Below are positions 22,538 through 41,541 of a stretch of DNA of 64,000 nucleotides, one piece after another; position 1 is the stretch's first letter, and every line of letters begins with the position of its first letter. The notes under the pieces were generated by a model. The model was given only the letters and a program-made list of their open reading frames with translations, did no database searches and was not told where the DNA came from. Position numbers and translations under genes: made by a program. This stretch comes from an uncultured Alphaproteobacteria bacterium (GTDB lineage Bacteria; Pseudomonadota; Alphaproteobacteria; Rhizobiales; Xanthobacteraceae), in contig CAWIID010000005.1 of the NCBI GenBank assembly GCA_963836055.1, positions 17,042-81,041 on the forward strand, written 5' to 3'.

Positions 22538-23779
22538 TTATCGAGCGCCGCATCGAGCGCCAGCCGGCGGCACCACTTCGTCGCAGATCAGCCGGCCCTC
22601 CGGCGTGTCACAGTCGAGGCGCCGCCCATAAAGGATCGCCTGGCGCGCGATGCGGTCGCCGGTGAAGCGCCACAGCCGCAGATTGGCAGCACCCGGAATG
22701 ATGCCTTCCTTACGCGCCGGCAGCGTCATGTAGGCGTCGTTCGCCGCCAAGACGTAATCGACCGCCAGCAGCAGCTGGCAGCCGCCGCCGATCGCAAATC
22801 CGTCGACCGCCGCGATCCACGGCTTTTCGATCGTTCCACCGGCAAGTTCATCGGGGTCGGCGTCCGGTCGGGCGAGGCCGCGAAACAGCTTGTTCACGAA
22901 GCCCATGTCGCGCTTGATGTACCAGACGTACGAAATTCTGCCGTGATAGAGGTGCGTCAGGTTGATGCCGGCCGAGAACAGGCGCTTACCGCGATACTTG
23001 CTGTGCTCGACAGTGTCGCCACGCAAAATCGCGATGTCGGTTGCGGGATCGAGCACAGCGAGATCGGCCGCGATTTCGAGGCCATCAAGCGTGCCCTCGT
23101 CCTCAGCGTTGAGAAAGCGCGGATTGCGCATGGTGACGAGCGCGGCCTTGCCGCGCCGTTCGAGCGTCGCGCCTTCGAGCGCCAGTTTTCCATCCGCCTC
23201 GAAGCGGCGCTTCTCCTCGAGCGTGCGCGGATGCGGCAGCAACATGGCGTGGCAAAGATGCGCGCCACACCGCTCGTGGGCGAGGACCTGCGAGAGAAAG
23301 AGGCCCTGGTCGATCTCGGCGCCATCCTTGTGCTGTTGCCGCAAGGCATTCTCTTGCACAAGGCGGGCGTCGTCCGGCACCAAGCCCGGCAAGACCGCCG
23401 CAGCGTCGCGCACGAGATTTTCAACGCGTTTAAATCTTGCAAAATCATCGGTGAGACGGCGATAGACGGTCTCCACATGCCGTTGCAGAAACGTCGTGCG
23501 CGCCGCTCTGTCGCGCTTCAAAATCGCCGACGCTGCTCTGGCTTCGGCCTCCGAACGCGACGCCTTCGGCGGCAGCAGCGACAGCATCTCCGCGCCGATC
23601 CGCCAGCGTTGCGCAAAAGTCTCGGCGTCTCGGCGATAATCACCGCTGAGGGCGTCGCTGCCCGCAAGCCACGCGGAAAGAGCCTCGTGCGGCAAACCTG
23701 CATTCGCAAGCGTATCCCCGTCGATCTGGCCTTCGTCGGCGATGCCCACCGCGACATCCATGGTCGAACTCCCCGGCAT
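22538..23779 (-). CDS. crotonase-superfamily protein, DpgC-like (cofactor-independent acyl-CoA dioxygenase-like)
   Basis: 413 aa, longer than a simple enoyl-CoA hydratase. It has FSAGINL...ISYVWYIKRDMGFVNKL...WIAAVDGFAIGGGCQLLLAVDYVLAANDAYMTLPARKEGIIPG. Its start abuts the stop of the upstream ligase (TAA-ATG). Confidence 0.65.
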   Translation of the reverse strand: MPGSSTMDVAVGIADEGQIDGDTLANAGLPHEALSAWLAGSDALSGDYRRDAETFAQRWRIGAEMLSLLPPKASRSEAEARAASAILKRDRAARTTFLQRHVETVYRRLTDDFARFKRVENLVRDAAAVLPGLVPDDARLVQENALRQQHKDGAEIDQGLFLSQVLAHERCGAHLCHAMLLPHPRTLEEKRRFEADGKLALEGATLERRGKAALVTMRNPRFLNAEDEGTLDGLEIAADLAVLDPATDIAILRGDTVEHSKYRGKRLFSAGINLTHLYHGRISYVWYIKRDMGFVNKLFRGLARPDADPDELAGGTIEKPWIAAVDGFAIGGGCQLLLAVDYVLAANDAYMTLPARKEGIIPGAANLRLWRFTGDRIARQAILYGRRLDCDTPEGRLICDEVVPPAGARCGAR

Positions 23780-27776: not shown

Positions 27777-28589
27777 ATGTCCAGCCCTGCCCCCGTCACA
27801 ACCCGTGAGGCCGACGCGCCATCCGCGGACCCGCGCACGCCGCGCCGAGTGCGCCACGAGCCACGCCGCCGCACGCTGACGATCAAGCAAGTCGAAAAGA
27901 TCGCAGCGCACATGATCCGCGTGACGCTGACCGGCGATCTTAATGACTTCACCAGCCTCGGTTTTGATGATCACGTTAAACTGTTTTTTCCAGACGGCAC
28001 GATGGACGCCGACGGCGCGCCCAACGTGCTGAGTCGCGATTTCACGCCGCGCCGCTACGATCGCGCCGCCAGCACCCTCGAGATCGATTTCGCCATCCAC
28101 GATGCCGGGCCGGCGACGCGCTGGGCCGCCCAGGCTGAGCTCGGTCAGACGCTGACCCTCGGCGGACCGCGCGGCTCCTTTATCATCCCGAACACCTACG
28201 ACTGGCATCTTCTGATCGGCGATGAAACCGCGCTCCCCGCCATATCGCGCCGGCTCGCCGAACTGCCGCCCGGCACGCGCACGGTTGTGCTGGCCGAGGT
28301 CGACGGACCAGAAGACGAACTCGAATTCGAGACGAAAACGAACGCGACCGTCACATGGGCGTACCGTGACGGCGCCGCGGCCGGCGCCAACGATGTGCTG
28401 GCAAAGGCTCTGGCAACGCTGAAACTTCCGGCGGGCGATTACTATGCCTGGGTCGCGTGCGAGTCGCTCACCGCTAAGGCGCTTCGCAGTCAACTGATCG
28501 CTGCTCATGGCGCCAATCCCAAATGGATGCGCGCCGCGGGCTATTGGCGTCGCGGCGCGGTCGCTGTGCACGACGTGCACCAAGACTGA
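27777..28589 (+). CDS. siderophore-interacting protein (FAD_binding_9 / SIP ferric reductase family)
   Basis: It has an FAD-binding barrel (RRRTLTIKQVEKIAAHMIRVTLTGD...RDFTPRRYD) and a C-terminal SIP NAD-binding half (HLLIGDETALPAISRRL...YYAWVACES). Confidence 0.85.
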   Translation: MSSPAPVTTREADAPSADPRTPRRVRHEPRRRTLTIKQVEKIAAHMIRVTLTGDLNDFTSLGFDDHVKLFFPDGTMDADGAPNVLSRDFTPRRYDRAASTLEIDFAIHDAGPATRWAAQAELGQTLTLGGPRGSFIIPNTYDWHLLIGDETALPAISRRLAELPPGTRTVVLAEVDGPEDELEFETKTNATVTWAYRDGAAAGANDVLAKALATLKLPAGDYYAWVACESLTAKALRSQLIAAHGANPKWMRAAGYWRRGAVAVHDVHQD

Positions 28590-28630
28590 TCTGGGGGCGA
28601 TGGGTCGCATTCCTGCGGAAGAGGAACACC

Positions 28631-29059
28631 GTGGTACGGAACTTTGATCACGTCACCATCGTCGTGCGCGACGTCGCAGCGGCCAAACATTTCTTCGGCC
28701 TGCTCGGTTTCAAAGAAGTAAAGTCCGTCGTGATCTCCGGCAAGGTCATGGAGGACTATATGGGCGTCGCGGGCATCGAGGCAGATCATGTCACGTTGGC
28801 AATCGAGAACCCGCACAGCGAAGTACAACTTCTGCACTACCGCCATCCGGAGATGATCGTCGATACCAATATCGCCAAGCTCAATAAGCTCGGCTTCAAC
28901 CACGTCTGCTTTGCCGTCGACGACCTTCAAGCCGAAATCGCGAAGCTGACCGCTGCCGGCGTCAAGCTTCGTAACAAGATGATGGATTTTCACAATCGCA
29001 AGCTTGTCTTCGTCCACGGCCCCGAAGATATCACCATCGAACTTGCCGAGTGGCACTGA
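28631..29059 (+). CDS. VOC (glyoxalase/bleomycin-resistance/dioxygenase) family protein
   Basis: From a GTG start: VRNFDHVTIVVRDVAAAKHFFGLLGF...GFNHVCFAVDDL...ITIELAEW. Confidence 0.8.
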   Translation: MVRNFDHVTIVVRDVAAAKHFFGLLGFKEVKSVVISGKVMEDYMGVAGIEADHVTLAIENPHSEVQLLHYRHPEMIVDTNIAKLNKLGFNHVCFAVDDLQAEIAKLTAAGVKLRNKMMDFHNRKLVFVHGPEDITIELAEWH

Positions 29060-29084
29060 GTAGCCCACGCGACGCTATCGCGCT

Positions 29085-30689
29085 CTATCCGCCATGCTCG
29101 GCGCTCAGTGCGCGTCTCAATCTTCGAATAATGACACCGCGCGCGCGATCATCGGCTGCCGCCTCGATTTGATCGTTGATGTCGAGTATGAGTTTCGACA
29201 TGTCGTTGTGCCAATCCAGAGCAACGACCGCTTCCGGCGCCAAGCGACGCCGATGCGTCACGTCGATCGGCGTCGGCGCGGTTGTCGAAAGTTCATAAAT
29301 GTCGTCCAGAAGCGGAACGAATACCTGCGCGGCCGGGATCGTGCGTTCGGCGATGCGGGCGGACAAGCCGGACAGCGCCGGCTCTTCGCCATGGATAAGG
29401 AACACGCCTCTGCGGATGGGACGGCGTCCGGCGATCCAGCGCGCCAGTTCGGGCCCATCGGCGTGACCCGAATATTCATCGATGCTGCGAATGCGAGCGC
29501 CGACCTTGATCTCCTCACCCTGAATGCGCACTGACTTCACGCCATCGACAAGAAATCGGCCGAGCGTGCCTTGAGCTTGAAAACCGACGAGGAGAACCGT
29601 AGCGCCGCTATTCCACAGCCACCGCTTCAAATGATGCCGGATGCGGCCGGCATCGCACATACCGCTTGCTGCAATAATGATGTGAAAGCCTGAAAACCTG
29701 GCAATGGCCTTGCTTTCCTCGACGGTTTCGGTCGGATGCAGGTTCGGAGAGCTGAGCAGGTGTTCGACGTCGACGCTCCTGTCGAGGCTCGATGCGTGCG
29801 TTCGGAATACTTCTGTGGCGCGAATAGCCAGAGGCGAATCGAGGAAAATCGGCGCGGTTGGAATATGGCCATGTTCCATAAGATCGATCAGGTCCACGAT
29901 CAGTTCCTGAGTGCGTTCGACCGCGAACGCCGGAATAAGCAAGGCCCCTTTTGCCAGGAAGGCGTCGCGCACTTCGCCGGCGAGCAGTTCGCGACGTGCC
30001 GCGGCTGTGATCGACGGCCGATCCACGTCACCGTAAGTGGATTCCGAAAGCACGTAGTCGAAGCCCGTCGGCGCCTCCGGATCAGGCTGAAGTAGTTTCG
30101 CGTCCGGGCCAATGTCTCCCGAAAATAGGATGCGGAGCGGCTGGCCCGCTGAGCCTTCTCCGGCAAACTCCAGTTCTATCGATGCGGACCCCAAAAGATG
30201 ACCCGCGTTCCAGTAGCGGGCACGCACGCCCGGAATTGCGGCGAACCAGGATTCATATTCGACAGGCCTGAATGCGTGGAGCGAGGCGACCGCATCGGCC
30301 TGGGTGTAGATCGGCGAGACTGCGGCGCGCCGCCGCGCGGCGTTCCGCCGATTCAAGCCAGCGACTTCCGTTTCCTGAATGCTCCCGGCATCGGGGAGCA
30401 GGTAGGAACACAAGTCGATCGTCCCACGGGTCGCCATGATGCTCCCGCTAAAGCCCTGCCGTACGAGCTTCGGAATCAATCCGCTATGATCGACGTGTGC
30501 GTGTGTCAGCAAGACCTTGTCGATGTCGCTCGGGCGAAACGGAAAGTCGTCGTAGTTCAACGCTTTCAGCGTTTTCGGCCCTTGAAACAATCCACAGTCG
30601 ACCAGAAGGCGCCCGGTTGGGGCTTCGATATGGTAACAGGAGCCGGTCACAGTTCGCGCCGCCCCACAAAATCTGAGCTTGACGCTCAT
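29085..30689 (-). CDS. MBL-fold metallo-hydrolase with beta-CASP and RNA-specificity domains (RNase J/CPSF73-like)
   Basis: It has the HxHxDH motif (THAHVDHSG), a beta-CASP segment and a C-terminal GHAD motif. Its start overlaps the upstream stop by 4 nt. Confidence 0.85.
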   Translation of the reverse strand: MSVKLRFCGAARTVTGSCYHIEAPTGRLLVDCGLFQGPKTLKALNYDDFPFRPSDIDKVLLTHAHVDHSGLIPKLVRQGFSGSIMATRGTIDLCSYLLPDAGSIQETEVAGLNRRNAARRRAAVSPIYTQADAVASLHAFRPVEYESWFAAIPGVRARYWNAGHLLGSASIELEFAGEGSAGQPLRILFSGDIGPDAKLLQPDPEAPTGFDYVLSESTYGDVDRPSITAAARRELLAGEVRDAFLAKGALLIPAFAVERTQELIVDLIDLMEHGHIPTAPIFLDSPLAIRATEVFRTHASSLDRSVDVEHLLSSPNLHPTETVEESKAIARFSGFHIIIAASGMCDAGRIRHHLKRWLWNSGATVLLVGFQAQGTLGRFLVDGVKSVRIQGEEIKVGARIRSIDEYSGHADGPELARWIAGRRPIRRGVFLIHGEEPALSGLSARIAERTIPAAQVFVPLLDDIYELSTTAPTPIDVTHRRRLAPEAVVALDWHNDMSKLILDINDQIEAAADDRARGVIIRRLRRALSAEHGG

Positions 30690-31601
30690 GACGCGGGCTC
30701 CTCTGCGCTCATCGTTTCTCGCCGGAGCGCCGCCAGCAGTATGTCGTCGAGAAAAATGGCGTTGGTTGGATGCGGCACGCTGTTCGTTGACCGGACTGAG
30801 CGAATGCCTGCCTGCGCAAACTCGCTTATCAACTCCGGTGCAAAGAGCGCATGAGTTACGACGGCGTCCACGGTCGTTGCTCCCGCCGCAAGAAGCGCCT
30901 TCGCGCAGGCCAGCAACGTTCCTCCGGACGAAACAATATCGTCCGCCAAGACGACTGGCCGGCCGGCAAACAGGGTTTCGTCTGCAAGGTTGATTTCAAC
31001 CGAACGGTCGCCGCGGCGTGTTTTCCGCGCAACGGCGTGCGCAACGCCCAGCCGTTCAGCCAGATCGGTCACCCATGGACTCAACTCTGCATCCGGACCA
31101 ACAATCACGGTGTTCCGATCAAAGCCCCACCCGCGCAACGCATCTGCAATGGCAGACATGGCTGACAGATTGTCCGCCTCGATGCCCGGAAAGACGTCCC
31201 GAATCTTCGCGGTGCGATGCAAATGGGCGTCGACCGTGATGATGCGGTCGACCGCTGCCGCGAGCAATCGTCCGACGATCTTTTGGCTGATCGCCTCGCT
31301 CTTATGAAAGGCAGCGTCCTGGCGCATGTAACACAGATAAGGTGCGACAAGAACGAGTTCGGGTGGCGCCGGCTCGGCGCAGCGCATCGGCCGCGAACAG
31401 AATCGCAAGAAGCTTGTCGTTCGGATGGTCAAGTGCGGCGTAGATGATGGTGGTCGGCGACGCGTCGCCGACTGTTACCCGCATCTCTCCGTCCGGAAAC
31501 CAATGTATCGCAATCTCATGCAGCGGGGCGCCGAGTCGTCTTGCAAGACGCTCGGCGTCGTTGACCGCAAACGGCAGGGTTTGAATCGCCAGCGCGGTCA
31601 C
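30686..31601 (-). pseudogene. ribose-phosphate pyrophosphokinase (Prs)-family protein, frame-disrupted at GGG 31361-31363
   Basis: The N-terminal part is in ORF 31302..31601 (...LLAILFAADALRRAGA). It continues in ORF 30686..31432 (ELVLVAPYLCYMRQD...VVLADDIVSSGGTL). Deleting one base of the homopolymer restores ...RRAGATELVLVAPYLCYMRQD. Confidence 0.8.
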
Positions 31602-33175
31602 GGACCAAGGCCGATGCGTCGGGCGGATTGCTCGCCATCGATCACGTAACCTGCATTCGCCTTACTGCCGGCAACCGCCAAGTCGAATTGGGAATGATCG
31701 AAGGCGAAAATTCGATAGAGCGGTTCGCCGCTATCCACGCGGTCGCCGATTTTTTTGAACACCTTTATGCCGGCGCCCTTGTCTATCGGAGCTCCCGCCG
31801 TTCGCGCGAGACGGTTGAGCCGAAGACAATCAATGCCGGTGACGACGCCGTCCTTCGGCGCCGTCACATCGGCGGTTAGCGGGCCAATATCGGTCGCACA
31901 GATCGGCGGCCCCTGAGCCTCCATGATTTTATGCATTTGCTTCAATGCCGCACCGCTGTCGAGCAACTCGCGCGCACGCGCGTAGCCCGTTCCACCCCGC
32001 AGCAGTGGATCGTACTCCAGCAGATGAGCAGCCAAGCGAAGCGACTTTTCGCGTAGATCCCGTGGCGCGCCAGCCTCGTTCGCCAGCACCGCCATGACGT
32101 CCTGAGACTCAAGCACCGGACCGATGCCGTTGCCGATCGGCTCTCGGCCATCTGTCGTGATCACTTCCACGGATATGCCAAAGTGATCCCCAACGAACTC
32201 GAACAGCTTGCGAAGCCGCATCGCATCCATGGCGTTTCTCAATTTGGCCGTTGGCCCCACCGGGAGATCGACAACGAGGTGGGTCGATCCGGCTGCAAGC
32301 TTCTTCGACATGATCGACGCGACCATTTGCTCGCGCGTATCGAGGCTGAGTGGACGTTCCACTGAAATGAGGATGTCGTCGGCGGGCGATAAGTTCACAT
32401 GTCCGCCCCACACCAGGCAGCCACGGCATGCCGAAACGACGTCCTTGATCTCCTCGATGCCGACATCGACACGCGCCAGAACTTCCATCGTATCCGCTGT
32501 TCCCGCCGGAGACGTTATGGCCCTCGACGACGTTTTGGGAATTGTCAGCCCATGCGCTGCTACGATCGGAACCACGATCATCGACGTACGGTTACCTGGA
32601 ATGCCTCCGATGCAGTGCTTGTCGACCACGATCGGTACGTCCCATTTAAGCTGCGTGCCCGCCTCGGCCATCGCCTGAGTGAGAGCAATCATTTCGCCGC
32701 TCGTCATAAAACTGGCCGAACTAATGAGAAACGCAGCGATCTCCATGTCGGAGTAGCGGTAGTGGGTCACGTCTTGCACGATCGCAGTGATGTCTGTTCC
32801 ACTCAGTGTTCGGCCCTGGATTTTGGCGCGCACGGCATCAAGGCTGTCGGGCGAAGCGGCCGGCGCGACGCTCACCAAGCTCCCGGATGGCTCAGCGAAG
32901 CGTCGAAAAGCAGGCTCGGCAAGTCCGAGCTCATCGGGACCGACCAGACTGTCGTCGTCGGTTATGAGCAGAGTCGCCAGCAGTACCTTCGAATCTCGCC
33001 GGAGCTCGACGCGGCTGAAGCCGCGAAACACGTCGGGACGCAGCGCGCTGGAACGCCGCGAAATGACGGCGACGTTCTCGCGGCCCGTATCGAGATTGAC
33101 ACGACGGATCGCCAGTTGCGGACGCGCCGTGTTGGTGAGATCTGGATTGGCGAGATTAGTATGGGTGGGATTCAT
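31598..33175 (-). CDS. thymidine phosphorylase family protein, archaeal AMP-phosphorylase-like architecture (N-terminal extension)
   Basis: 525 aa. An ~90-aa N-terminal domain precedes the glycosyltransferase family-3 core ([36 protein letters not shown]). Confidence 0.82.
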
Positions 33176-33419
33176 GGGCAGCGGATGGTGAGTGGGTCAG
33201 CCCAAACGATAGGGCATTGCCGCTCGGCCAAATTGACGCAGATCATAATGCACATCTGCAGGGAAGAGTCGGACAGGGCCATGCGGCACGCAAAACGCGT
33301 TGTGCAGCCGTCCTAAGGAATGATTTGATAGTCCAATGCCACGGCAAGCCGGGTCAAACAAACTCGGCTCACTGGCCGCTCGCGGTTTCACGGCCGGCCT
33401 GCGACGCGGCCACGAAACG

Positions 33420-34457
33420 TCATGCCGCTTCCCGGTCGAGCACTTGCAAGAGCTTCCGCAAGGCCTCTACCAACTCGTCATGACTGCGCTCATGGCCGGT
33501 TGGAGCCGGCGCACGCTGGAAGAAATGCGCAGGAAACGCTGGCATCTTGCGGTCGCTGCTGACGCCATCGTTAGCCGCACGTCGCCGGATCTTTTTCATC
33601 CGCGGCCGGCCGACGGTCCTGGTCAACATCGACCGCATGTATAACCCGGCGACCATCAATCCGATGACGCCAATCACAACAAGCCCTGTTGACATTTCAC
33701 CGGAAGGGGCCGCCGCCGGGACCGGACCAATGACTGATAGATCCGACGCTTTGTCGTTCCCCGCGTCATTCCCGGCCTGCGCAGACGGCGCGGAAGGCTT
33801 CTGTGCGGTGTCCTCGGGAACCGTTTCCGCAGGAGCAGTAGCGGCTGACACCGGCGGCTCAGGCCAAGCCGTAGTGTCGGCACTGGACTGCGATGGAGGC
33901 TCAGGCGATGCCGCTTTGCTGATGCTGCCTGTCGACGGCGGCTCAGGCCAGACGGTCGCATCGGAACGAATCTGTGGTGGCTCGGGCGACGCCGTTTTGC
34001 TGGTGCCAGCCGGTGACGGGGGCTGCGGCCAAGCAACGGTTTCAGCATTGGCCGGCGCCGGCGGGTCCGGCCAAGCCGCCGTTTCGGCACCCGCAGGTGC
34101 TGGCGCATCCGCTCGGGTCGCCACGCCGGCACGCGGCTTGCCGCTTGCTCGAACGCTACTTCGCGCATGTTCTGGCGTGTGCACGGGGCTGGATGCAGCC
34201 GATACGGGCGTCGCCGCTTCGGGTTGTTCCTGTGCGGCCGTTTCCGGGACCGCTTGGTCTTTCGGCCGCACATGCCAGCATTTGCGCTGCGTCGCGCGGT
34301 CTTCGTGGTAATACCAGTGGCTCCCCGCCGGCGCCGCCCCATTCGGCGCGGTGAGGCAATCATCTTCCGCGCGCGCGAAACCTGCCTTCAGGCTGACCCC
34401 CGCCAGCACCGTGACCAGCGCGGCAGCCACTGGAACCAATCCGGCCTTGGCCCTCAT
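33420..34457 (-). CDS. Pro-rich repeat protein with N-terminal signal and C-terminal TM anchor
   Basis: It starts MRAKAGLVPVAAALVTVLAGVSLKAGFARA, then CLTAPNGAAPAGSHWYYHEDRATQRKCW. It has five W-P-(D/Q/E)-P-P repeats and a late helix GLVVIGVIGLMVAGLYM. Confidence 0.6.
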   Translation of the reverse strand: MRAKAGLVPVAAALVTVLAGVSLKAGFARAEDDCLTAPNGAAPAGSHWYYHEDRATQRKCWHVRPKDQAVPETAAQEQPEAATPVSAASSPVHTPEHARSSVRASGKPRAGVATRADAPAPAGAETAAWPDPPAPANAETVAWPQPPSPAGTSKTASPEPPQIRSDATVWPEPPSTGSISKAASPEPPSQSSADTTAWPEPPVSAATAPAETVPEDTAQKPSAPSAQAGNDAGNDKASDLSVIGPVPAAAPSGEMSTGLVVIGVIGLMVAGLYMRSMLTRTVGRPRMKKIRRRAANDGVSSDRKMPAFPAHFFQRAPAPTGHERSHDELVEALRKLLQVLDREAA

Positions 34458-34701
34458 GTCCCCTCCGATACCAATGGCTCGGAAAAATTCTCCCTCGAAT
34501 TCGACCTCAATGCGTCGCGAATCCGGCAATTCCGTGTTTCCGGGTGCCTAAGCGGTATCCGAATCCCGATTCGCGCCGCCCATTGGCGCGAGAGCCCGGG
34601 CTTAAGGCTGTGCGAAGTCCCAAATAAATGTTTGCAACCTTACCATCCAACTTCTATACGTAATAATACAAGTCTAAAACATCAGTTCTAATTGTAATTC
34701 C

Positions 34702-34956
34702 ATGATTACTGCGGGCCAGCTCAGGGCTTCTCGGGCACTCCTTGGCATCGATCAACGTAAGCTCGCGGAAGCCGCAGGGCTCTCGCTGCCAACAATTCAG
34801 CGGATGGAGGCGAGCGAAGGGGTTGTACGCGGCAACGTCAATTCGCTGATGAAGCTCGTCGCCGCGCTTGATGCGTTCGGTATCGAGCTCATTTCCGACA
34901 ACGCCTCGACCCAAGCCGGTGGACGAGGCGTGCGACTTAAGAGGGCGGGGTCGTGA
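34702..34956 (+). CDS. XRE-family helix-turn-helix transcriptional regulator, first gene of the hyf-like operon
   Basis: ITAGQLRASRALLGIDQRKLAEAAGLSLPTIQRMEAS. Its stop overlaps the GTG start of the next gene (GTGA). Confidence 0.75.
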   Translation: MITAGQLRASRALLGIDQRKLAEAAGLSLPTIQRMEASEGVVRGNVNSLMKLVAALDAFGIELISDNASTQAGGRGVRLKRAGS

Positions 34957-36962
34957 CGCTCACGATTGTCCTTGTTTGCGCCGCGATCCTGCTCGCCCTG
35001 GCCCCGCTCGCCGTGGCGCTCAGCAGCTCAAGCACGGCGACGCGGGTCATCTATGGCGCCAGCATGGTCGCGTCGACGGTTTCGCTCGCAGCCGCACTGG
35101 CATACCTTCTCGGCGCATCGAGCCCTGAAAGCACCACCCTTCCGGTTGGCGTGCCCTGGCTTGGTGCGCATTTGCGCATTGACGCGCTCTCGGCCTTCTT
35201 CCTCATCGTGGTTGATCTTGGCGCCTTGAGCGCAAGCTTGTTTGCGCTCGGCTACGGCCAACATGAAACGTCGCCGGAGCGCGTGCTGCCGTTCTTTCCT
35301 GCCTTCCTCGCCGGCATGACGCTGGTCGTGCTGGCCGATGACGCCTTCACATTTCTGCTCTCCTGGGAATTCATGTCGCTGACCTCGTGGGCGATGGTGA
35401 TGTCGCATCACCGCGTGCCGGAGAATGTGCATGCCGGTTTTGTTTATCTGGTCATGGCGAGCTTCGGGACGCTCACTTTGCTGCTCGCCTTCGGCCTGCT
35501 CGCGGGACCCGATGGCCTTTATACGTTCGCGCAGATGCGCGACGCCCATCCGTCAGCGGCACTCGGCGCGCTGGCATTGATCCTCGCACTCATCGGAGCG
35601 GGTTCGAAGTCGGGTCTCGTTCCCCTGCACGCGTGGCTGCCGTTAGCGCACCCGGCCGCTCCAAGCCATGTTTCCGCCCTGATGAGCGGCGTGATGACGA
35701 AGGTCGCTGTCTACGGCTTTGTGCGCATCGTCTTCGATCTCGCGGGCAGCCCGGCGTGGTGGTGGAGCATCGTCGTGCTCGCAGTTGCCGGAGTGACGAC
35801 CGTGATGGGTGTGCTCTATGCGCTGATGCAGCACGACCTCAAGCGGCTGCTTGCCTATCACACCGTGGAGAACATCGGCATTATCTTCATCGGGCTCGGG
35901 CTTGCGCTCGCCTTCAAGGCGCACGGCATGCTGTTCCCTGCAGCGCTCGCACTGACCGCAGCGCTCCTCCACGTGTTCAACCACTCCTTGTTCAAGAGCC
36001 TCTTGTTCTTCGGCGCCGGTGCGGTGCTCACCGCAACCGGCGAGCGTGACATGGAGCACCTTGGCGGCCTCATTCATCGCATGCCGCGAACCGCATTCGT
36101 TTTTCTCGTCGGTTGCGTCGCGATCTCCGCGCTGCCGCCGCTCAACGGCTTCGTCTCCGAATGGCTGACATTCCAAGCGATCCTGCTGAGCCCGCAACTG
36201 CCGTCGTGGGGGCTTAAGCTTATGGTGCCGGCCGTCGGCGCATTATTGGCGCTTTCCGCCGCGCTGGCCGCCGCCTGCTTCGTCAAGGCCTACGGCGTAA
36301 CCTTTCTCGGCCGTCCGCGCACGCGCGCCGCCGAAGATGCTTCGGAAACCGACCAGTATTCGCTAGCCGCGATGATGCTTCTTGCATCGTTGTGCCTCGC
36401 TGCCGGAATCCTGCCCGGCCTGTTCATCGACGCGCTGGCGCCAGTCAGTTCCGCTCTGATCGGCGAGCACATGCCGGTTCAAATCGGCGCGCAATGGCTC
36501 TCCATCGTTCCGATTGCCGCCAGCCGCAGTTCCTACGACGGGCTTCTGGTATTTATGTTCATGGTCATCTCGGGCACTCTCGCGGCGTCCGCGATTCACC
36601 GCTTCGCTTCGGATCGGCTGCGCCGGGCGCCCACCTGGGACTGCGGCTATCCGGATGCTAGTCCGGCGACCCAATACTCGGCCATGAGTTTTGCGCAGCC
36701 GATCCGGCGCGTGTTCGGCACCATCGTATTTCGCGCGCGCGAGCATGCCGAGATACCGCCGCCTGGCGACACGCGGCCGGCGCGACTGACGGTGGAACTG
36801 CACGATCTTATCTGGGAGGCGATCTACGCGCCCATCGCTGTCGGCATCGGCTTTGCCGCCGACCGCCTCAATCGCCTGCAGTTTTTGACCATCCGCCAAT
36901 TCTTGACGTTGGTGTTCTGCACTCTCGTCGCTCTGCTGTTGGTGCTCGCCGCATGGTCCTGA
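34953..36962 (+). CDS. HyfB/NuoL-like proton-translocating antiporter subunit (Ehr-type complex)
   Basis: 669 aa and polytopic. It has the Mrp/NuoL motifs WEFMSLTSW and GSKSGLVPLHAWLPLAHPAAPSHVSALMSG. Confidence 0.88.
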   Translation: MTLTIVLVCAAILLALAPLAVALSSSSTATRVIYGASMVASTVSLAAALAYLLGASSPESTTLPVGVPWLGAHLRIDALSAFFLIVVDLGALSASLFALGYGQHETSPERVLPFFPAFLAGMTLVVLADDAFTFLLSWEFMSLTSWAMVMSHHRVPENVHAGFVYLVMASFGTLTLLLAFGLLAGPDGLYTFAQMRDAHPSAALGALALILALIGAGSKSGLVPLHAWLPLAHPAAPSHVSALMSGVMTKVAVYGFVRIVFDLAGSPAWWWSIVVLAVAGVTTVMGVLYALMQHDLKRLLAYHTVENIGIIFIGLGLALAFKAHGMLFPAALALTAALLHVFNHSLFKSLLFFGAGAVLTATGERDMEHLGGLIHRMPRTAFVFLVGCVAISALPPLNGFVSEWLTFQAILLSPQLPSWGLKLMVPAVGALLALSAALAAACFVKAYGVTFLGRPRTRAAEDASETDQYSLAAMMLLASLCLAAGILPGLFIDALAPVSSALIGEHMPVQIGAQWLSIVPIAASRSSYDGLLVFMFMVISGTLAASAIHRFASDRLRRAPTWDCGYPDASPATQYSAMSFAQPIRRVFGTIVFRAREHAEIPPPGDTRPARLTVELHDLIWEAIYAPIAVGIGFAADRLNRLQFLTIRQFLTLVFCTLVALLLVLAAWS

Positions 36963-37909
36963 TCCGCGATCTGGCCACTCAGGGCGCCCAGATGCTGCTG
37001 GTGCTGATCTTGGCGCCGCTGTTCACGGGTTTCGTGCGCAAGGTAAAGGCGCGTTTGTTGCGGCGGCAGGGTCCACCGCTGATCCAGCCCTATCTCGATC
37101 TCATCCGGCTCACACGCAAGGAGGTGGTGCTGGCGGAGAGCGCCTCGTGGCTGTTCCGCGTCATCCCCTATCTGATCTTCGCCGCCACTTGGGTTGCGGC
37201 GTCTCTGGTGCCGACATTCCGCACCGGGCTGTTGTTCTCGTGGTCGGCTGATCTCATTGCCATCGCGGCACTTTTGGGCAGCGGACGCTTTTTCCTGGCG
37301 CTCGCCGGAATGGATGTCGGCACGAGCTTCGGCGGCATCGGTTCAAGCCGGGAAGTGATGATCGCCTCGCTCGCCGAGCCGGCGATGCTCATGATGGTGT
37401 TCACGCTGGCGCTGATCGCCGGCTCGACCCAGCTTTCCACCATGGCCGCCTTCATGGCGTCGTCCGCGGTCGGGCTGCGCGTCTCGCTTGGGCTGGCGCT
37501 CATCGCCCTCATCATGGTGGCGATCGCCGAGAACAGCCGTATTCCGATCGACAATCCGGCGACGCATCTTGAGCTGACCATGGTGCACGAAGCGATGGTG
37601 CTCGAGTATTCGGGCCGGCATCTTGCGCTGATCGAGCTTTCGTCTTCGCTCAAGCTTATTCTTTACACCTCGCTGATCGCCTGCCTGTTCGTACCCTGGG
37701 GAATCGAGTCAGCGAGCGCAACAATGTCGACCCTGGCCGTCGGCGTTGCCGCCTACATCGGAAAGCTGGCCGTGGGCGGTTTCCTGCTCGCGCTGTTCGA
37801 GACGTCGATCGCCAAGATGCGCGTGTTTCGCGTGCCGGAATTTTTGGGCGCCGCGCTGATGCTCGGTTTGCTCGCAACTCTCTTGCGCTTCGTATCCGGG
37901 AGTTTCTGA
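36953..37909 (+). CDS. HyfC/HycD/NuoH-like membrane subunit
   Basis: 318 aa. It has the RKVKARLLRRQGPPLIQPY N-terminal motif and DNPATHLELTMVHEAMVLEYSG. Confidence 0.88.
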   Translation: MVLIRDLATQGAQMLLVLILAPLFTGFVRKVKARLLRRQGPPLIQPYLDLIRLTRKEVVLAESASWLFRVIPYLIFAATWVAASLVPTFRTGLLFSWSADLIAIAALLGSGRFFLALAGMDVGTSFGGIGSSREVMIASLAEPAMLMMVFTLALIAGSTQLSTMAAFMASSAVGLRVSLGLALIALIMVAIAENSRIPIDNPATHLELTMVHEAMVLEYSGRHLALIELSSSLKLILYTSLIACLFVPWGIESASATMSTLAVGVAAYIGKLAVGGFLLALFETSIAKMRVFRVPEFLGAALMLGLLATLLRFVSGSF

Positions 37910-38571
37910 TGACGGGGATCGATTTCGACGTCGCCCATCTGCTCGCCGGCTCGCTGGTGCTGGTCAGTTTCATGGAACTCTATCAGGACCGGCTTTATGC
38001 CCTGCTCAACATTTATGCCTTGCATGCCTTGGTGCTCGCGGCGTCGGTTGCCTGGCAGGCGTTCATCCAGGACGCGCCGCATCTCTATGTCACCGCGGCG
38101 ATCGCGCTGATCTTCAAGGCGATTATCATTCCCGTGGCGCTGCACCGGATGATTGTCCGGTTGGGTATCCATCGCGAGATCGAAAACGTGGTCGGCGTGG
38201 GCCCCGCCATGCTGGCCGGCATCGGGCTCGTTGCGTTGTCCATGGTGGTGATGTTGCGCGTAACCCAGGAAGCCGATCCGCTGGCGCGCGAGGACCTCGC
38301 TTTCGCGCTCTCGGTGGTGCTGCTCGGCCTTTTGATGATGGTGACGCGGCGCAACGCCGTGAGCCAAGTCGTAGGCTTCATGTCTCTCGAAAACGGCCTG
38401 GTCCTGGCCGCAACCGGCGCCAAGGGCATGCCGCTCGTGGTCGAGATCAGCGTCGCATTCTCCATCCTCATCGCCTTCATCGTGATCGGAATTTTTCTGT
38501 TCCGCATTCGCGAGCGCTTCGACAGCGTCGATGTGCAGGCGCTCGATCGTTTTCGCGGAGAGCGGCGATGA
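37909..38571 (+). CDS. HyfE-like (NuoK-related) membrane subunit
   Basis: 220 aa with 6-7 TM segments and the VVGFMSLENGLVLAA motif. It has ATGA overlaps at both ends. Confidence 0.8.
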   Translation: MTGIDFDVAHLLAGSLVLVSFMELYQDRLYALLNIYALHALVLAASVAWQAFIQDAPHLYVTAAIALIFKAIIIPVALHRMIVRLGIHREIENVVGVGPAMLAGIGLVALSMVVMLRVTQEADPLAREDLAFALSVVLLGLLMMVTRRNAVSQVVGFMSLENGLVLAATGAKGMPLVVEISVAFSILIAFIVIGIFLFRIRERFDSVDVQALDRFRGERR

Positions 38572-40022
38572 CTTTTTATGGCGTGACGTTCAATCCCTTA
38601 GCCGGAGTCCTCGCCGTTCCCGCTTTCGCCGCGGCGTTGTTCGCGGTACTGCCCGCGTATCGGCTGACCGCGCGGCTCAACGTGCTGGCGACAACCCTGA
38701 CTTTGCTGTGCGCGCTTTCGCTGTTCGTCGGAAAGCCACAGCCTAATTCCTATCTTCTGGTCGATGATCTCAACAGCACGTTCATCGTGCTCTCGACATT
38801 CGTGGGTTTCACCACAAGCATATTCAGCGCCAGCTATATCGGCCACGAACTCGACATCGGCCGGTTGACGCCGCAGTCCGTGCGCTTCTATCACGCGATG
38901 TATCAGGTCCTGATGTTCGCGATGAATCTCGCGCTCGCCGCCAACAATATCGGCCTGATGTGGGTGGCGATCGAGCTTGCCACCCTCACGACGGTGCTGA
39001 TGGTCGGCATCTACCGCACGCACGAGGCGCTCGAGGCGGCGTGGAAATATTTCATCCTCGGCAGCGTCGGCATCGCACTCGCGTTGTTTGGTACGATCCT
39101 GGTCTATATGGCGGCGCGGCCGGTCGTGGGTGAAGGTCTCGACGCCATGGTCTGGTCCGTGCTCGTCAAGCGCGCCGGCGCCTTCGACCCGGCGCTGCTC
39201 AATGTCGCGTTTGTCTTTCTGCTACTCGGCTACGGCACGAAAGTCGGGCTCGCGCCATTACACGCCTGGCTGCCCGATGCGCACGCCGAGGGCCCGACAC
39301 CGATTTCGGCGGTGCTGTCGGGATTACTGCTCAATGTCGCGCTTTACGCCCTGTTGCGCTTCAAGATGCTGCTGGCGGCAAACACCGGTGCGCTCGCGCC
39401 CGGCCCGTTGATGGTGACGCTCGGATTACTTTCACTCGTCTTCGCCGCGTTCATGCTTTACCGCCGGCGCGACATCAAGCGCATGTTCGCCTATTCGTCG
39501 ATTGAGCATATGGGCATCATCACCTTCGCCTTCGGCATGGGTGGACCGCTCGCCAATTTTGCCGGCCTGCTGCACATGACCATGCATTCGCTCACCAAGT
39601 CGGCGATATTTTTTGCCGTCGGCCATGTCGCCCAGGTCAAGGGGACGCAACGGATCGCCGACATGGGTGGCCTGACCGAAACCCATCCGGTGCTTGGCTG
39701 GGGGTTGATCCTGGGCGTCCTGGCCATCGCCGGACTGCCGCCGCTCGGCATTTTCATGAGCGAATTTCTGGTCATCAGCTCGACCTTCGCCCGCGCGCCG
39801 TTGCTCGCGCTTGTTCTCGTTTTTGGCATTCTCGTCGGCTTTGCCGCTCTGTTCCTGCGGCTCAACAGCATCGCGTTCGGCGAGCCGCGCGGTCCTACGG
39901 CCAAGGCGCAGGCCTCCTACGTCCCGATGTTCGCCCATCTTGGCCTCGTCCTGCTCGCCGGCATTTATATGCCGCCGGCGCTGGTCGCCTGGTTCCAGAA
40001 CGTTGCCGGACTGCTGGGTTAA
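38568..40022 (+). CDS. HyfF/NuoN-like antiporter subunit
   Basis: 484 aa with GTKVGLAPLHAWLPDAHAEGPTPISAVLSG and YSSIEHMG motifs. Confidence 0.88.
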   Translation: MTFYGVTFNPLAGVLAVPAFAAALFAVLPAYRLTARLNVLATTLTLLCALSLFVGKPQPNSYLLVDDLNSTFIVLSTFVGFTTSIFSASYIGHELDIGRLTPQSVRFYHAMYQVLMFAMNLALAANNIGLMWVAIELATLTTVLMVGIYRTHEALEAAWKYFILGSVGIALALFGTILVYMAARPVVGEGLDAMVWSVLVKRAGAFDPALLNVAFVFLLLGYGTKVGLAPLHAWLPDAHAEGPTPISAVLSGLLLNVALYALLRFKMLLAANTGALAPGPLMVTLGLLSLVFAAFMLYRRRDIKRMFAYSSIEHMGIITFAFGMGGPLANFAGLLHMTMHSLTKSAIFFAVGHVAQVKGTQRIADMGGLTETHPVLGWGLILGVLAIAGLPPLGIFMSEFLVISSTFARAPLLALVLVFGILVGFAALFLRLNSIAFGEPRGPTAKAQASYVPMFAHLGLVLLAGIYMPPALVAWFQNVAGLLG

Positions 40023-40026
40023 AACG

Positions 40027-41541
40027 ATGCCCGCGCTGATCGACATCATTCGCGGCAAACGAGTTGACGATCATCGCCCCTGGCCGCGTTTGATGGTCAC
40101 GACCGATGTTTGGAGCGAGGTTGCGACCGAACTCGCCGCCGGCCGCGCAACGCTGCTTGGCCTCTGGGGCGATTCCAGCGCCTCGTACGCAGTGCACATG
40201 GCGATCGTGGACCAACAGGACGCAAGCGACATCGCCGTCGTGAGCCTCGAATGTCCGAACGAAACGTTTCCGTCGGTTGGCGCGCTACACCCACCTGCCA
40301 TACGGCTCGAACGCGCCATCTTCAGTCTCTACGGGCTCCAACCAGTCGGCGCTCCGGATTTGCGACCGTGGCTCGATCTCGGCTTTTGGGATGTGCAACG
40401 GCCGCTCGGCACGCGCATCTCCGCGCCGGATGTAAGGCCGCCCTACCCGTTTTTGCCGGTGGAGGGTGAGAGCCTGCATCAAATCCCGGTCGGGCCCGTA
40501 CACGCCGGCATCATCGAGCCGGGACATTTTCGTTTCACCGCCGGCGGTGAGACCGTGGTGCGGCTCGAAGAACGCCTCGGCTATGTGCACAAGGGCATCG
40601 AGTCGCTGATGGCAGGGGCGGAGATCGGGCGGGCCGCACGCCTTGCCGCGCGCACGTCCGGCGACAGCACTGTGGCCTACGGAATCGCATTTGCTCATGC
40701 TGTCGAGGCGGCTTTGAACGTCGAAGCGCCGCCACGAGCGCAATATTTGCGTGCGCTGATGGCCGAGCTTGAACGGCTGGCAAATCACTTCGGCGACATC
40801 GGCGCCATCTGCAACGACGCCTCGTTCGCGCTCATGCATGCGCATTGTGGAATCCTGCGCGAACTGGTGTTGCGCACCGCCGAACGCTGCTTTGGCCATC
40901 GTCTGATGATGGATCGCGTCATCCCTGGCGGCGTCGGCGCCGATCTCACCTCATCCGGCATTGCGGTCCTGAAAGAGGCTTTGCAACATTTCCGGCTGCG
41001 GTTTCCCAGCCTGATCGAACTTTACGACAACACGGCCTCGCTGCAGGACCGCACCGCCCGCACCGGTATCGTAAGTGTCGAATTGGCCCGGCAGTTCGGA
41101 GCGTCCGGCTATGTTGGGCGCGCCAGCGGCCGCAACTTCGACGCACGGAAAAGCCCGGGTTACGCGCCGTACAACGAACTCAACTTCGACGTTCCGGTGC
41201 TGACGGCCGGCGATGTCAATGCCCGGGTGTGGATCCGTATCCGCGAAGTGGAGCAAAGCCTGGCGCTGATAGAGCAACTGATCGAGCGCCTGCCGACCGG
41301 ATCGATCAACACCGCACTCGATGGCGGCAGCGGCGAAGGTTTGGGCTTTGCGGAAGGCTTCCGCGGGGATGTGCTGGTCTCGGTGCGGCTCGACGGCGCA
41401 CGCATCGTGCGTTGCCATCTGCGCGATCCGTCGTGGTTTCAGTGGCCGCTGCTGGAGGCCGCAATCGAAGGCAACATCGTTGCCGACTTTCCACTCTGCA
41501 ACAAGTCGTTCAACTGCTCGTATTCGGGGCACGACTTGTAG
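40027..41541 (+). CDS. HyfG/HycE-like NuoC-NuoD fusion large subunit lacking the [NiFe] cysteine ligands
   Basis: It has the IPVGPVHAGIIEPGHFRF and ERLGYVHKGIE motifs. The position of the RxCGxCxxxH motif reads RTSGDSTVAY (40651-40680). The C-terminus reads FPLCNKSFNCSYSGHDL where HycE has PLIIGSLDPCYSCTDR. The ORF-track start at 39811 overlaps hyfF, so the ATG at 40027 is used. Confidence 0.85.
   Translation: MPALIDIIRGKRVDDHRPWPRLMVTTDVWSEVATELAAGRATLLGLWGDSSASYAVHMAIVDQQDASDIAVVSLECPNETFPSVGALHPPAIRLERAIFSLYGLQPVGAPDLRPWLDLGFWDVQRPLGTRISAPDVRPPYPFLPVEGESLHQIPVGPVHAGIIEPGHFRFTAGGETVVRLEERLGYVHKGIESLMAGAEIGRAARLAARTSGDSTVAYGIAFAHAVEAALNVEAPPRAQYLRALMAELERLANHFGDIGAICNDASFALMHAHCGILRELVLRTAERCFGHRLMMDRVIPGGVGADLTSSGIAVLKEALQHFRLRFPSLIELYDNTASLQDRTARTGIVSVELARQFGASGYVGRASGRNFDARKSPGYAPYNELNFDVPVLTAGDVNARVWIRIREVEQSLALIEQLIERLPTGSINTALDGGSGEGLGFAEGFRGDVLVSVRLDGARIVRCHLRDPSWFQWPLLEAAIEGNIVADFPLCNKSFNCSYSGHDL

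Follow-up and report, generated by a model that had tools for sequence, protein, structure and literature searches.

We analyzed a 64,000-nucleotide (nt) stretch of DNA, hereafter the window, from an uncultured alphaproteobacterium of the Xanthobacteraceae (GenBank assembly GCA_963836055.1, contig CAWIID010000005.1, positions 17,042 to 81,041). Its minus strand carries three consecutive genes, for a protein resembling nucleoside monophosphate (NMP)/AMP phosphorylase, a paralogue of phosphoribosyl pyrophosphate (PRPP) synthetase (Prs), and a beta-CASP metallo-beta-lactamase (MBL) ribonuclease. This operon is the orthologue of bll3117-bll3116-bll3115 (Bdiaspc4_16110/16105/16100) of Bradyrhizobium diazoefficiens, which, according to published work, is expressed in low oxygen in dependence on FixK2. 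We propose that it is an accessory operon under a low-oxygen regulator of the CRP/FNR type (FixK2), and that it recycles RNA and nucleotides through ribose-1,5-bisphosphate (R15P); we regard this proposal as about evenly poised between right and wrong.

Analysis of open reading frames (ORFs) placed the three genes in a row on the same strand. The phosphorylase gene (31598–33175, minus strand; 525 amino acids (aa); families TIGR02645 and NF003338, with an N-terminal extension domain) shares a GTGA stop/start overlap at 31598–31601 (minus strand) with the Prs-like gene (30686–31601, minus strand; subfamily NF005537, also PRK07199), and the latter shares an ATGA overlap at 30686–30689 (minus strand) with the beta-CASP gene (29085–30689, minus strand; 534 aa). 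The ORF ends bear out an earlier note on this DNA, made from the letters alone, which had read 4-nt overlaps at both junctions and a single operon. A FixK2/FNR-type box, ATGATCTGCGTCAA (33233–33246, minus strand), begins 71 nt 5′ of the phosphorylase ATG. Scans for intrinsic terminators and sigma-70 promoters gave background level only, and Rfam returned no credible match for a riboswitch or leader RNA in 28500–35000.

The B. diazoefficiens operon matches that of the window in its three families and in their order. It is a predicted operon, with a putative FixK2 box, ATGATCTGGGTCAA, starting at −74 from the bll3117 start codon (PMC9104804); the window's box, at −71, differs from it by one spacer base. 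A Bradyrhizobium japonicum locus (L026) carries a box identical to that of B. diazoefficiens, and its phosphorylase and nuclease are 75% and 66% identical to those of the window; its Prs-like protein is 75% identical to the intact protein of L001, a metagenomic contig 97% identical to the window and syntenic with it over 15 kb. When we aligned 8 upstream regions from related genomes, the FixK2-type box was the sole invariant island. Allowing at most one mismatch, a TTGA-N6-TCAA box was found upstream of the phosphorylase gene in 35 of 79 loci, as against a rate of 0.136 per 380 nt in the rest of the same loci.

Expression of the orthologue has been measured by others. At 0.5% O2, bll3117 showed a protein log2 fold change of 2.1 and a transcript fold change of 5.1, bll3116 showed 4.4 and 7.7, and bll3115 showed 2.9 and 15.4, respectively (PMC6515984). 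In a fixK2 deletion mutant, bll3117 was down 6.6-fold and bll3115 down 30.6-fold; bll3116 does not appear in that table (PMC9104804). The earlier note had taken the module to be uncharacterised in bacteria. This stands as far as function goes, since our literature search found no paper that gives the trio one, but the B. diazoefficiens orthologue was already listed as induced by microoxia and dependent on FixK2 (PMC6515984, PMC9104804). As a FixK2-regulon operon it is already catalogued, from omics tables alone, and, though not surprising, it is worth following up by experiment. The low-oxygen lxa locus of Burkholderia was considered as a possible further carrier of the trio and dropped, because neither a phosphorylase nor a pyrophosphokinase nor a metallo-hydrolase is named in the paper on it.

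To gauge how tightly the genes are associated, we used the phosphorylase as the anchor of a survey with a single genome for each species, and obtained 80 loci at 52–82% identity from Alpha-, Beta-, Gamma- and Zetaproteobacteria and from one metagenome-assembled genome (MAG) labelled Thermodesulfatator. Partners were counted over the 60 loci whose flanks were long enough: 36 had all three genes, 17 had the phosphorylase and Prs-like genes, 5 had the phosphorylase and nuclease genes, and 2 had neither partner. The tight core is thus the phosphorylase–Prs pair (53 of 60), and the nuclease, found in 41 of the 60, is a common addition. Across all 80 loci, the order phosphorylase-Prs-nuclease was kept in 40 of the 43 that have all three genes, an arrangement far beyond chance, and no other ORF family recurred in more than 17. 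The claim that the trio is co-conserved held in that one operon is kept across genomes; it did not extend to the nuclease as a universal member.

The module also travels. In PLSDB, 127 plasmids carry the phosphorylase and 103 the Prs-like gene; the two sets have the same taxonomic make-up, and 48–49 plasmids are conjugative. Among the matches listed, the two genes lay at most 5 kb apart on 28 of the 29 plasmids common to both. In all, module plasmids number more than 100 in Pseudomonadota, Chlamydiota and Bacteroidota. A search of known plasmids returned no DNA near-identical to the window. A divergent clade (41–47% identity) with the order MBL-phosphorylase-Prs occurs on plasmids of Legionella, Ralstonia, Criblamydia (Chlamydiota) and Pontibacter (Bacteroidota). 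Within the module, a flavodoxin gene is inserted in a Sphingobium locus, and a phosphoketolase-like gene parts the Prs-like gene from the other two in a Pseudorhizobium locus. Because the trio survives rearrangement and transfer across phyla, a shared function can be strongly argued.

The first protein matched the Pfam families PYNP_C, Glycos_trans_3N and Glycos_transf_3 and scored well above the curated cut-offs of TIGR02645 (694.8 bits; cut-off 434.6) and NF003338 (692.2 bits; cut-off 434). Its nearest solved structure is the AMP phosphorylase of Thermococcus kodakarensis (4GA5/4GA6, 341 bits), whereas no thymidine or pyrimidine nucleoside phosphorylase structure exceeded 136 bits. Identity to the T. 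kodakarensis enzyme is 42.7% overall and 61% over the catalytic core (residues 182–300). Alignment begins at residue 21 with both AMP_phos and TIGR02645 and at residue 60 with 4GA5; the Pfam thymidine phosphorylase core does not start until residue 113, about 90 residues after the two models. These comparisons agree with the earlier description of an AMP-phosphorylase-like protein that has an N-terminal extension of about 90 aa; the protein is not DeoA-like. An AlphaFold model, built from a shallow alignment, had a mean pLDDT of 49.7. The T. kodakarensis enzyme converts AMP, CMP and UMP with phosphate to the free base and R15P (PMC9700705), and it multimerises by means of its first 84 residues (PMC9700705, PMC8376864).

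The second protein belongs to an accessory branch of the Prs family. Both Pribosyltran_N and Pribosyltran were matched in Pfam, and the best model was NF005537 (cut-off 322), on which the window's copy, split by frame, scored 74.5 bits for its N-terminal and 287.8 bits for its C-terminal part. Intact orthologues of both clades passed this cut-off (373.7, 393.7 and 400.8 bits) and failed every canonical or archaeal Prs equivalog, scoring for example 144 bits on NF002320 (PRK01259; cut-off 297); on the archaeal Prs equivalog, NF005537 proteins reached 172–215 bits against a cut-off of 296. The nearest solved relatives of the clade-B proteins are the class III PRPP synthases of Methanocaldococcus jannaschii (1U9Y) and Sulfolobus solfataricus (4TWB), at 130–140 bits, with which the Prs-like proteins share the catalytic Lys/Arg loop, His130, the RQD motif and the DD...SxGT loop that binds ribose-5-phosphate (R5P).

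We aligned 70 members of the NF005537 family with human PRPS1, whose numbering is used here. F35, D37, E39, R96, Q97, D98, H130, K194, R196, D220 and D221 are kept in 69–70 of the 70 sequences. In contrast, the diphosphate (PPi) loop, Asp-x-Gly-Gly in the human enzyme, reads Asp-x-Glu-Ser, with Glu in 70 and Ser in 63 of the 70; Asp224 is replaced by Ser and Gln133 by Arg. The solved Prs that we aligned (human, M. jannaschii and S. solfataricus) all keep at least the first glycine of this loop, the archaeal class III enzymes included. Because the catalytic residues are invariant while the PPi loop has become Glu-Ser, the paralogue looks catalytically competent, but is remodelled at the very site that holds the diphosphate to be transferred. 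Nearly all of the 150 best representatives are about 300 aa long, with no clear fusion among them. The gene is an accessory paralogue and not the housekeeping enzyme, because it is found on conjugative plasmids (48 of its 103), is absent from some loci and is disrupted here; the absence of an obvious housekeeping role had been suspected before. No second Prs homologue was found in the window, which is uninformative at 64 kb.

The third protein has the full domain set of the RNase J/CPSF73-like metallo-beta-lactamases to which it had been assigned: Lactamase_B, Beta-Casp (127.7 bits) and RMMBL (54.9 bits). The RNase TTHA0252 of Thermus thermophilus is its nearest solved relative (240 bits), and all seven catalytic motifs of this group, MBL motifs 1–4 and beta-CASP motifs A–C, are present (D31, H63xH65xD67H68, H164, D192, E216, H409, H433) and kept in 52–54 of 54 homologues. 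It differs from these enzymes in having no KH or other RNA-binding additions, in the C-terminal tail of about 75 aa that marks its clade, and in standing in an operon of nucleotide enzymes. Its scores lie below the equivalog cut-offs for Cas14 of type VII CRISPR (321 vs 800 bits) and for aCPSF1 (222 vs 580 bits).

Gene fusions bear on what the phosphorylase does. In two independent lineages, an N-terminal domain of PhnN, the enzyme that in Escherichia coli forms PRPP from R15P and ATP, is fused to the phosphorylase, and in both a nadC paralogue comes first: in Variovorax sp. SRS16 plasmid 4 (L004:6613–10588; fusion of 717 aa) and in Pacificitalea manganoxidans pDY25-A (L005:6387–9353; fusion of 708 aa). 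The fused PhnN domains score 180–184 bits against an equivalog cut-off of 156, and the phosphorylase part passes NF003338. Among the loci examined, no PhnN was found where the Prs-like gene is present and no Prs-like gene in the PhnN-fusion loci. PhnN has a guanylate-kinase-like fold and the window's partner a Prs fold, yet the mutual exclusion suggests that the Prs paralogue plays a PhnN-equivalent, PRPP-forming role. Because the phosphorylase family is coupled to either of two PRPP-forming enzymes across lineages, it is tied to R15P/PRPP metabolism. The fusion loci could encode a closed cycle in which quinolinate and PRPP give nicotinate mononucleotide, this is split to nicotinate and R15P, and R15P is returned to PRPP. 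A transporter of the tripartite tricarboxylate (TTT) or tripartite ATP-independent periplasmic (TRAP) type stands alongside the nadC and fusion genes. A 2024 paper noted nadC-phnN-bug27 in Variovorax; the word "phosphorylase" is absent from its text. At loci that have no Prs-like gene, we did not find a substitute PRPP or R15P enzyme nearby, only CRP-family regulators, cyclases and unrelated genes.

These observations can be assembled into a mechanism, of which we infer all the enzymatic steps. Under oxygen limitation, a FixK2/FNR-type activator would switch the operon on. The beta-CASP RNase, by homology, would degrade RNA to 5′-NMPs, and the archaeal-type phosphorylase would convert NMP and phosphate to base and R15P, as its Thermococcus homology and the PhnN fusions suggest. 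The Prs paralogue would then return pentose phosphate to PRPP, via the canonical reaction of R5P with ATP or, as a more speculative option, via a PhnN-like reaction on R15P. As a net effect, a non-growing, oxygen-limited cell could dispose of AMP and other NMPs and reuse their bases and pentose phosphate to make whatever nucleotides and cofactors it requires. The order of events proposed in the earlier note, from nuclease to NMP to phosphorolysis to phosphoribosyl activation, is plausible, and the PhnN fusions lend it support.

Several points weigh against this proposal. Its weakest part is the link from R15P to the substrate of Prs, because the substrate of canonical Prs is R5P and not R15P, and no obvious step from R15P to R5P is encoded in the operon. 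The phosphorylase scores 486.7 bits on the AMP_phos equivalog TIGR03327, below the cut-off of 535 (the Criblamydia homologue reaches 506.5 bits), and by these scores is placed in the sister family TIGR02645, outside that equivalog; our literature search returned no characterised bacterial member of either the phosphorylase family or the NF005537 Prs family. The nuclease is missing in about a third of loci. The enrichment of the regulatory box is concentrated in Bradyrhizobium-like loci, with the box mostly absent upstream of the gammaproteobacterial genes, and bll3115–3117 are not induced in soybean bacteroids and have no FixK2-target flag in the 2019 table (PMC6515984). Finally, the PhnN fusion is equally compatible with a phosphorylase-fold enzyme that consumes PRPP. 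The phosphorylase as a producer of R15P for PhnN is nevertheless favoured over a consumer of PhnN-made PRPP, because of its close homology to a characterised NMP phosphorylase.

A bolder form of the recycling proposal, which we put forward tentatively and think rather unlikely, is that the operon encodes a pentose-bisphosphate route independent of RuBisCO and induced by oxygen limitation, in which the NF005537 Prs, with its Glu-Ser loop, has a new activity on R15P and ribosomal RNA is a reserve of activated ribose or ATP for hypoxic persistence. The new activity could be PhnN-like, giving PRPP and ADP from R15P and ATP, or an energy-conserving transfer of the 1-phosphate. If the proposed recycling through R15P is right, that metabolite would gain a mainstream role in bacterial metabolism, and functions could be assigned both to an uncharacterised subfamily of PRPP synthetases and to a conserved part of the low-oxygen FixK2/FNR regulon. 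B. diazoefficiens, for which the regulator, mutants and growth conditions exist, would permit a direct test.

Among the alternatives, control of the adenylate pool (energy charge) survives best, and we judge it unlikely. Here the phosphorylase would remove AMP that piles up under limited respiration, much as Amn does but by phosphorolysis, and Prs would supply PRPP to rebuild AMP from adenine on recovery, with the RNase a loosely associated factor in mRNA and rRNA decay. Expression induced by low oxygen would suit such a role, as would the phosphorylase–Prs core and a nuclease that is dispensable in 17 of 60 loci, and the archaeal enzyme was first described in AMP metabolism (PMC9700705, PMC8376864). 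Proteins of about 280 aa with an ATP-cone, an adenylate-sensing domain, directly precede the MBL-phosphorylase-Prs block on the Criblamydia plasmid (L090:4801–5643) and the Pontibacter plasmid (L091:1972–2817). However, the Thermococcus enzyme accepts all NMPs and prefers CMP (PMC8376864), and the nuclease is translationally coupled in the window and present in 41 of the 60 loci. This alternative overlaps heavily with the recycling of RNA and nucleotides through R15P, and sequence cannot cleanly separate the two.

The PRPP-consuming enzyme raised above can be stated more fully: the phosphorylase-fold protein would be a TrpD-like, PRPP-dependent phosphoribosyltransferase (PRTase) acting on some acceptor, with PRPP supplied by Prs or by the fused PhnN. 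Its fold family is that of anthranilate PRTase, with weak trpD matches; the Prs-like and PhnN partners are both PRPP-forming, and a second PRTase, NadC, adjoins the PhnN fusions. This is quite unlikely, as the protein is far closer to NMP phosphorylase (341 bits, 61% core identity) than to TrpD (38 bits), and no conserved candidate gene for producing an acceptor lies nearby.

In a bacterial copy of the archaeal "NMP shunt", R15P made by Prs, a housekeeping Apt and the phosphorylase would go on to 3-phosphoglycerate through an R15P isomerase encoded elsewhere and the RuBisCO of the host. With the archaeal pentose bisphosphate pathway (the T. kodakarensis NMP phosphorylase TK0352, R15P isomerase, form III RuBisCO), the window shares the first enzyme only, which is homologous from end to end, its N-terminal multimerisation domain included; in place of isomerase and RuBisCO stand a beta-CASP RNase and a Prs paralogue, and control is by oxygen. 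Several host lineages are autotrophic (Bradyrhizobium, Rhodopseudomonas, a Nitrobacter plasmid, Chromatiaceae and Thiogranum). Against this, neither R15P isomerase nor RuBisCO was seen in the annotated or Pfam-labelled loci or among those recurrent neighbour families that we looked at or compared with Pfam, a search confined to the loci; their absence from the window, remarked on earlier, is thus repeated in every locus whose gene content was examined. In halophilic archaea the phosphorylase strictly tracks RuBisCO (PMC9700705), a pattern not seen here. The module is also present in Legionella, Criblamydia, sphingomonads and Pontibacter, none of which is known to have RuBisCO. We consider a bacterial shunt very unlikely.

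As a last alternative, the genes might defend against phage or act as a toxin, depleting nucleotides or breaking down nucleic acid once infection sets in. Such a role would fit the plasmid-borne, island-like spread (48–49 conjugative plasmids) and the resemblance of the nuclease to Cas14 and, weakly, to the Anti-Pycsar family, but is hardly credible, given that expression of the orthologue follows oxygen and FixK2, that the neighbours are stress, metal-efflux and fermentation genes and not defence genes, and that PADLOC returned no match for the phosphorylase or nuclease and only an 18-bit PRTase-motif match of the Prs-like protein to PsyrT, so that a known defence system was rejected.

The Prs-like gene of the window is frame-disrupted, as had been noticed from the letters at the GGG run 31361–31363, and alignment to intact orthologues confirms it. 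Relative to two such proteins, of 304 aa (L001) and 306 aa (L002), the gene has one extra base in GCCACCCGAAC (minus strand), within the plus-strand GGG run at 31361–31363 or at 31359; the +1 insertion site spans 31359–31363 (minus strand; a CCC run on the coding strand). It is consequently read in two frames, 31302–31601 and 30686–31432. Both halves are 85–88% identical to the L001 protein, with no internal stops. An enoyl-CoA hydratase-family gene (475 aa in L001) shows a second frame change relative to L001 at about 22563–22565, where tblastn passes from frame −1 to −2, which brings the frameshifted genes to two among 10 compared within about 15 kb and makes an assembly error likelier for both. 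Split tblastn matches in Prs-like or beta-CASP genes also occur in L008, L010, L013 and L016 (loci labelled "MFD" and others, from MAGs, several of them long-read) and are consistent with frameshift errors of those assemblies. Because a second gene in the same 15 kb is frameshifted and several long-read MAG loci have split matches, the frameshift may at least as well be an assembly error as a true pseudogene. Either the module is partly inactive in the window or the base call is wrong.

The genes that recur around the module are CRP/FNR-family regulators, universal stress proteins (Usp), a cation P-type ATPase and a Zn-dependent alcohol dehydrogenase, neighbours typical of hypoxia or dormancy islands; in Sphingobium they include phosphoenolpyruvate (PEP) synthase, PfkB, a PRTase and a CBS protein. 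We considered phosphoketolase and acetate kinase as a conserved downstream sink. They are adjacent in only 3–4 of about 92 loci (L010, L021, L090 and, weakly, L006), which is suggestive at most, and the idea was set aside; a phosphoketolase-acetate kinase operon does stand in the same B. diazoefficiens FixK2 table (PMC9104804). The Criblamydia block is flanked by genes for phosphoketolase, glycogen phosphorylase and acetate kinase.

On plasmids of Methylophaga (L088), Ralstonia insidiosa (L089) and Legionella (L007), the module lies inside heavy-metal efflux and copper-resistance islands with Czc/Cus resistance-nodulation-division (RND) systems, P-type ATPases, MerR and HMA proteins. Among L053–L087, mostly gammaproteobacterial loci, those lacking the nuclease often have an ABC exporter (ABC_membrane and ABC_tran) immediately upstream of the phosphorylase-Prs pair (a cluster present in 9 loci), and in 7 loci the pair is followed immediately downstream by a DUF1614 membrane protein.

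In the window itself, an ORF for a Pro/Ala-rich protein of 369 aa (33420–34529, minus strand) lies directly 5′ of the operon; it has no Pfam match and is 85% identical to a called gene of L001. Divergent from the operon is a group-4 NiFe-hydrogenase-like cluster (34702–41541, plus strand) with Proton_antipo_M, NADHdh and Complex1_49kDa/NiFeSe_Hases domains, whose start is overlapped by the gene for a small HTH_3 regulator (34702–34956). Its first two genes, those for the helix-turn-helix (HTH) regulator and the start of an antiporter-like subunit, are syntenic in L001, a contig that stops at this point. This cluster is a second anaerobic-type function beside the operon.

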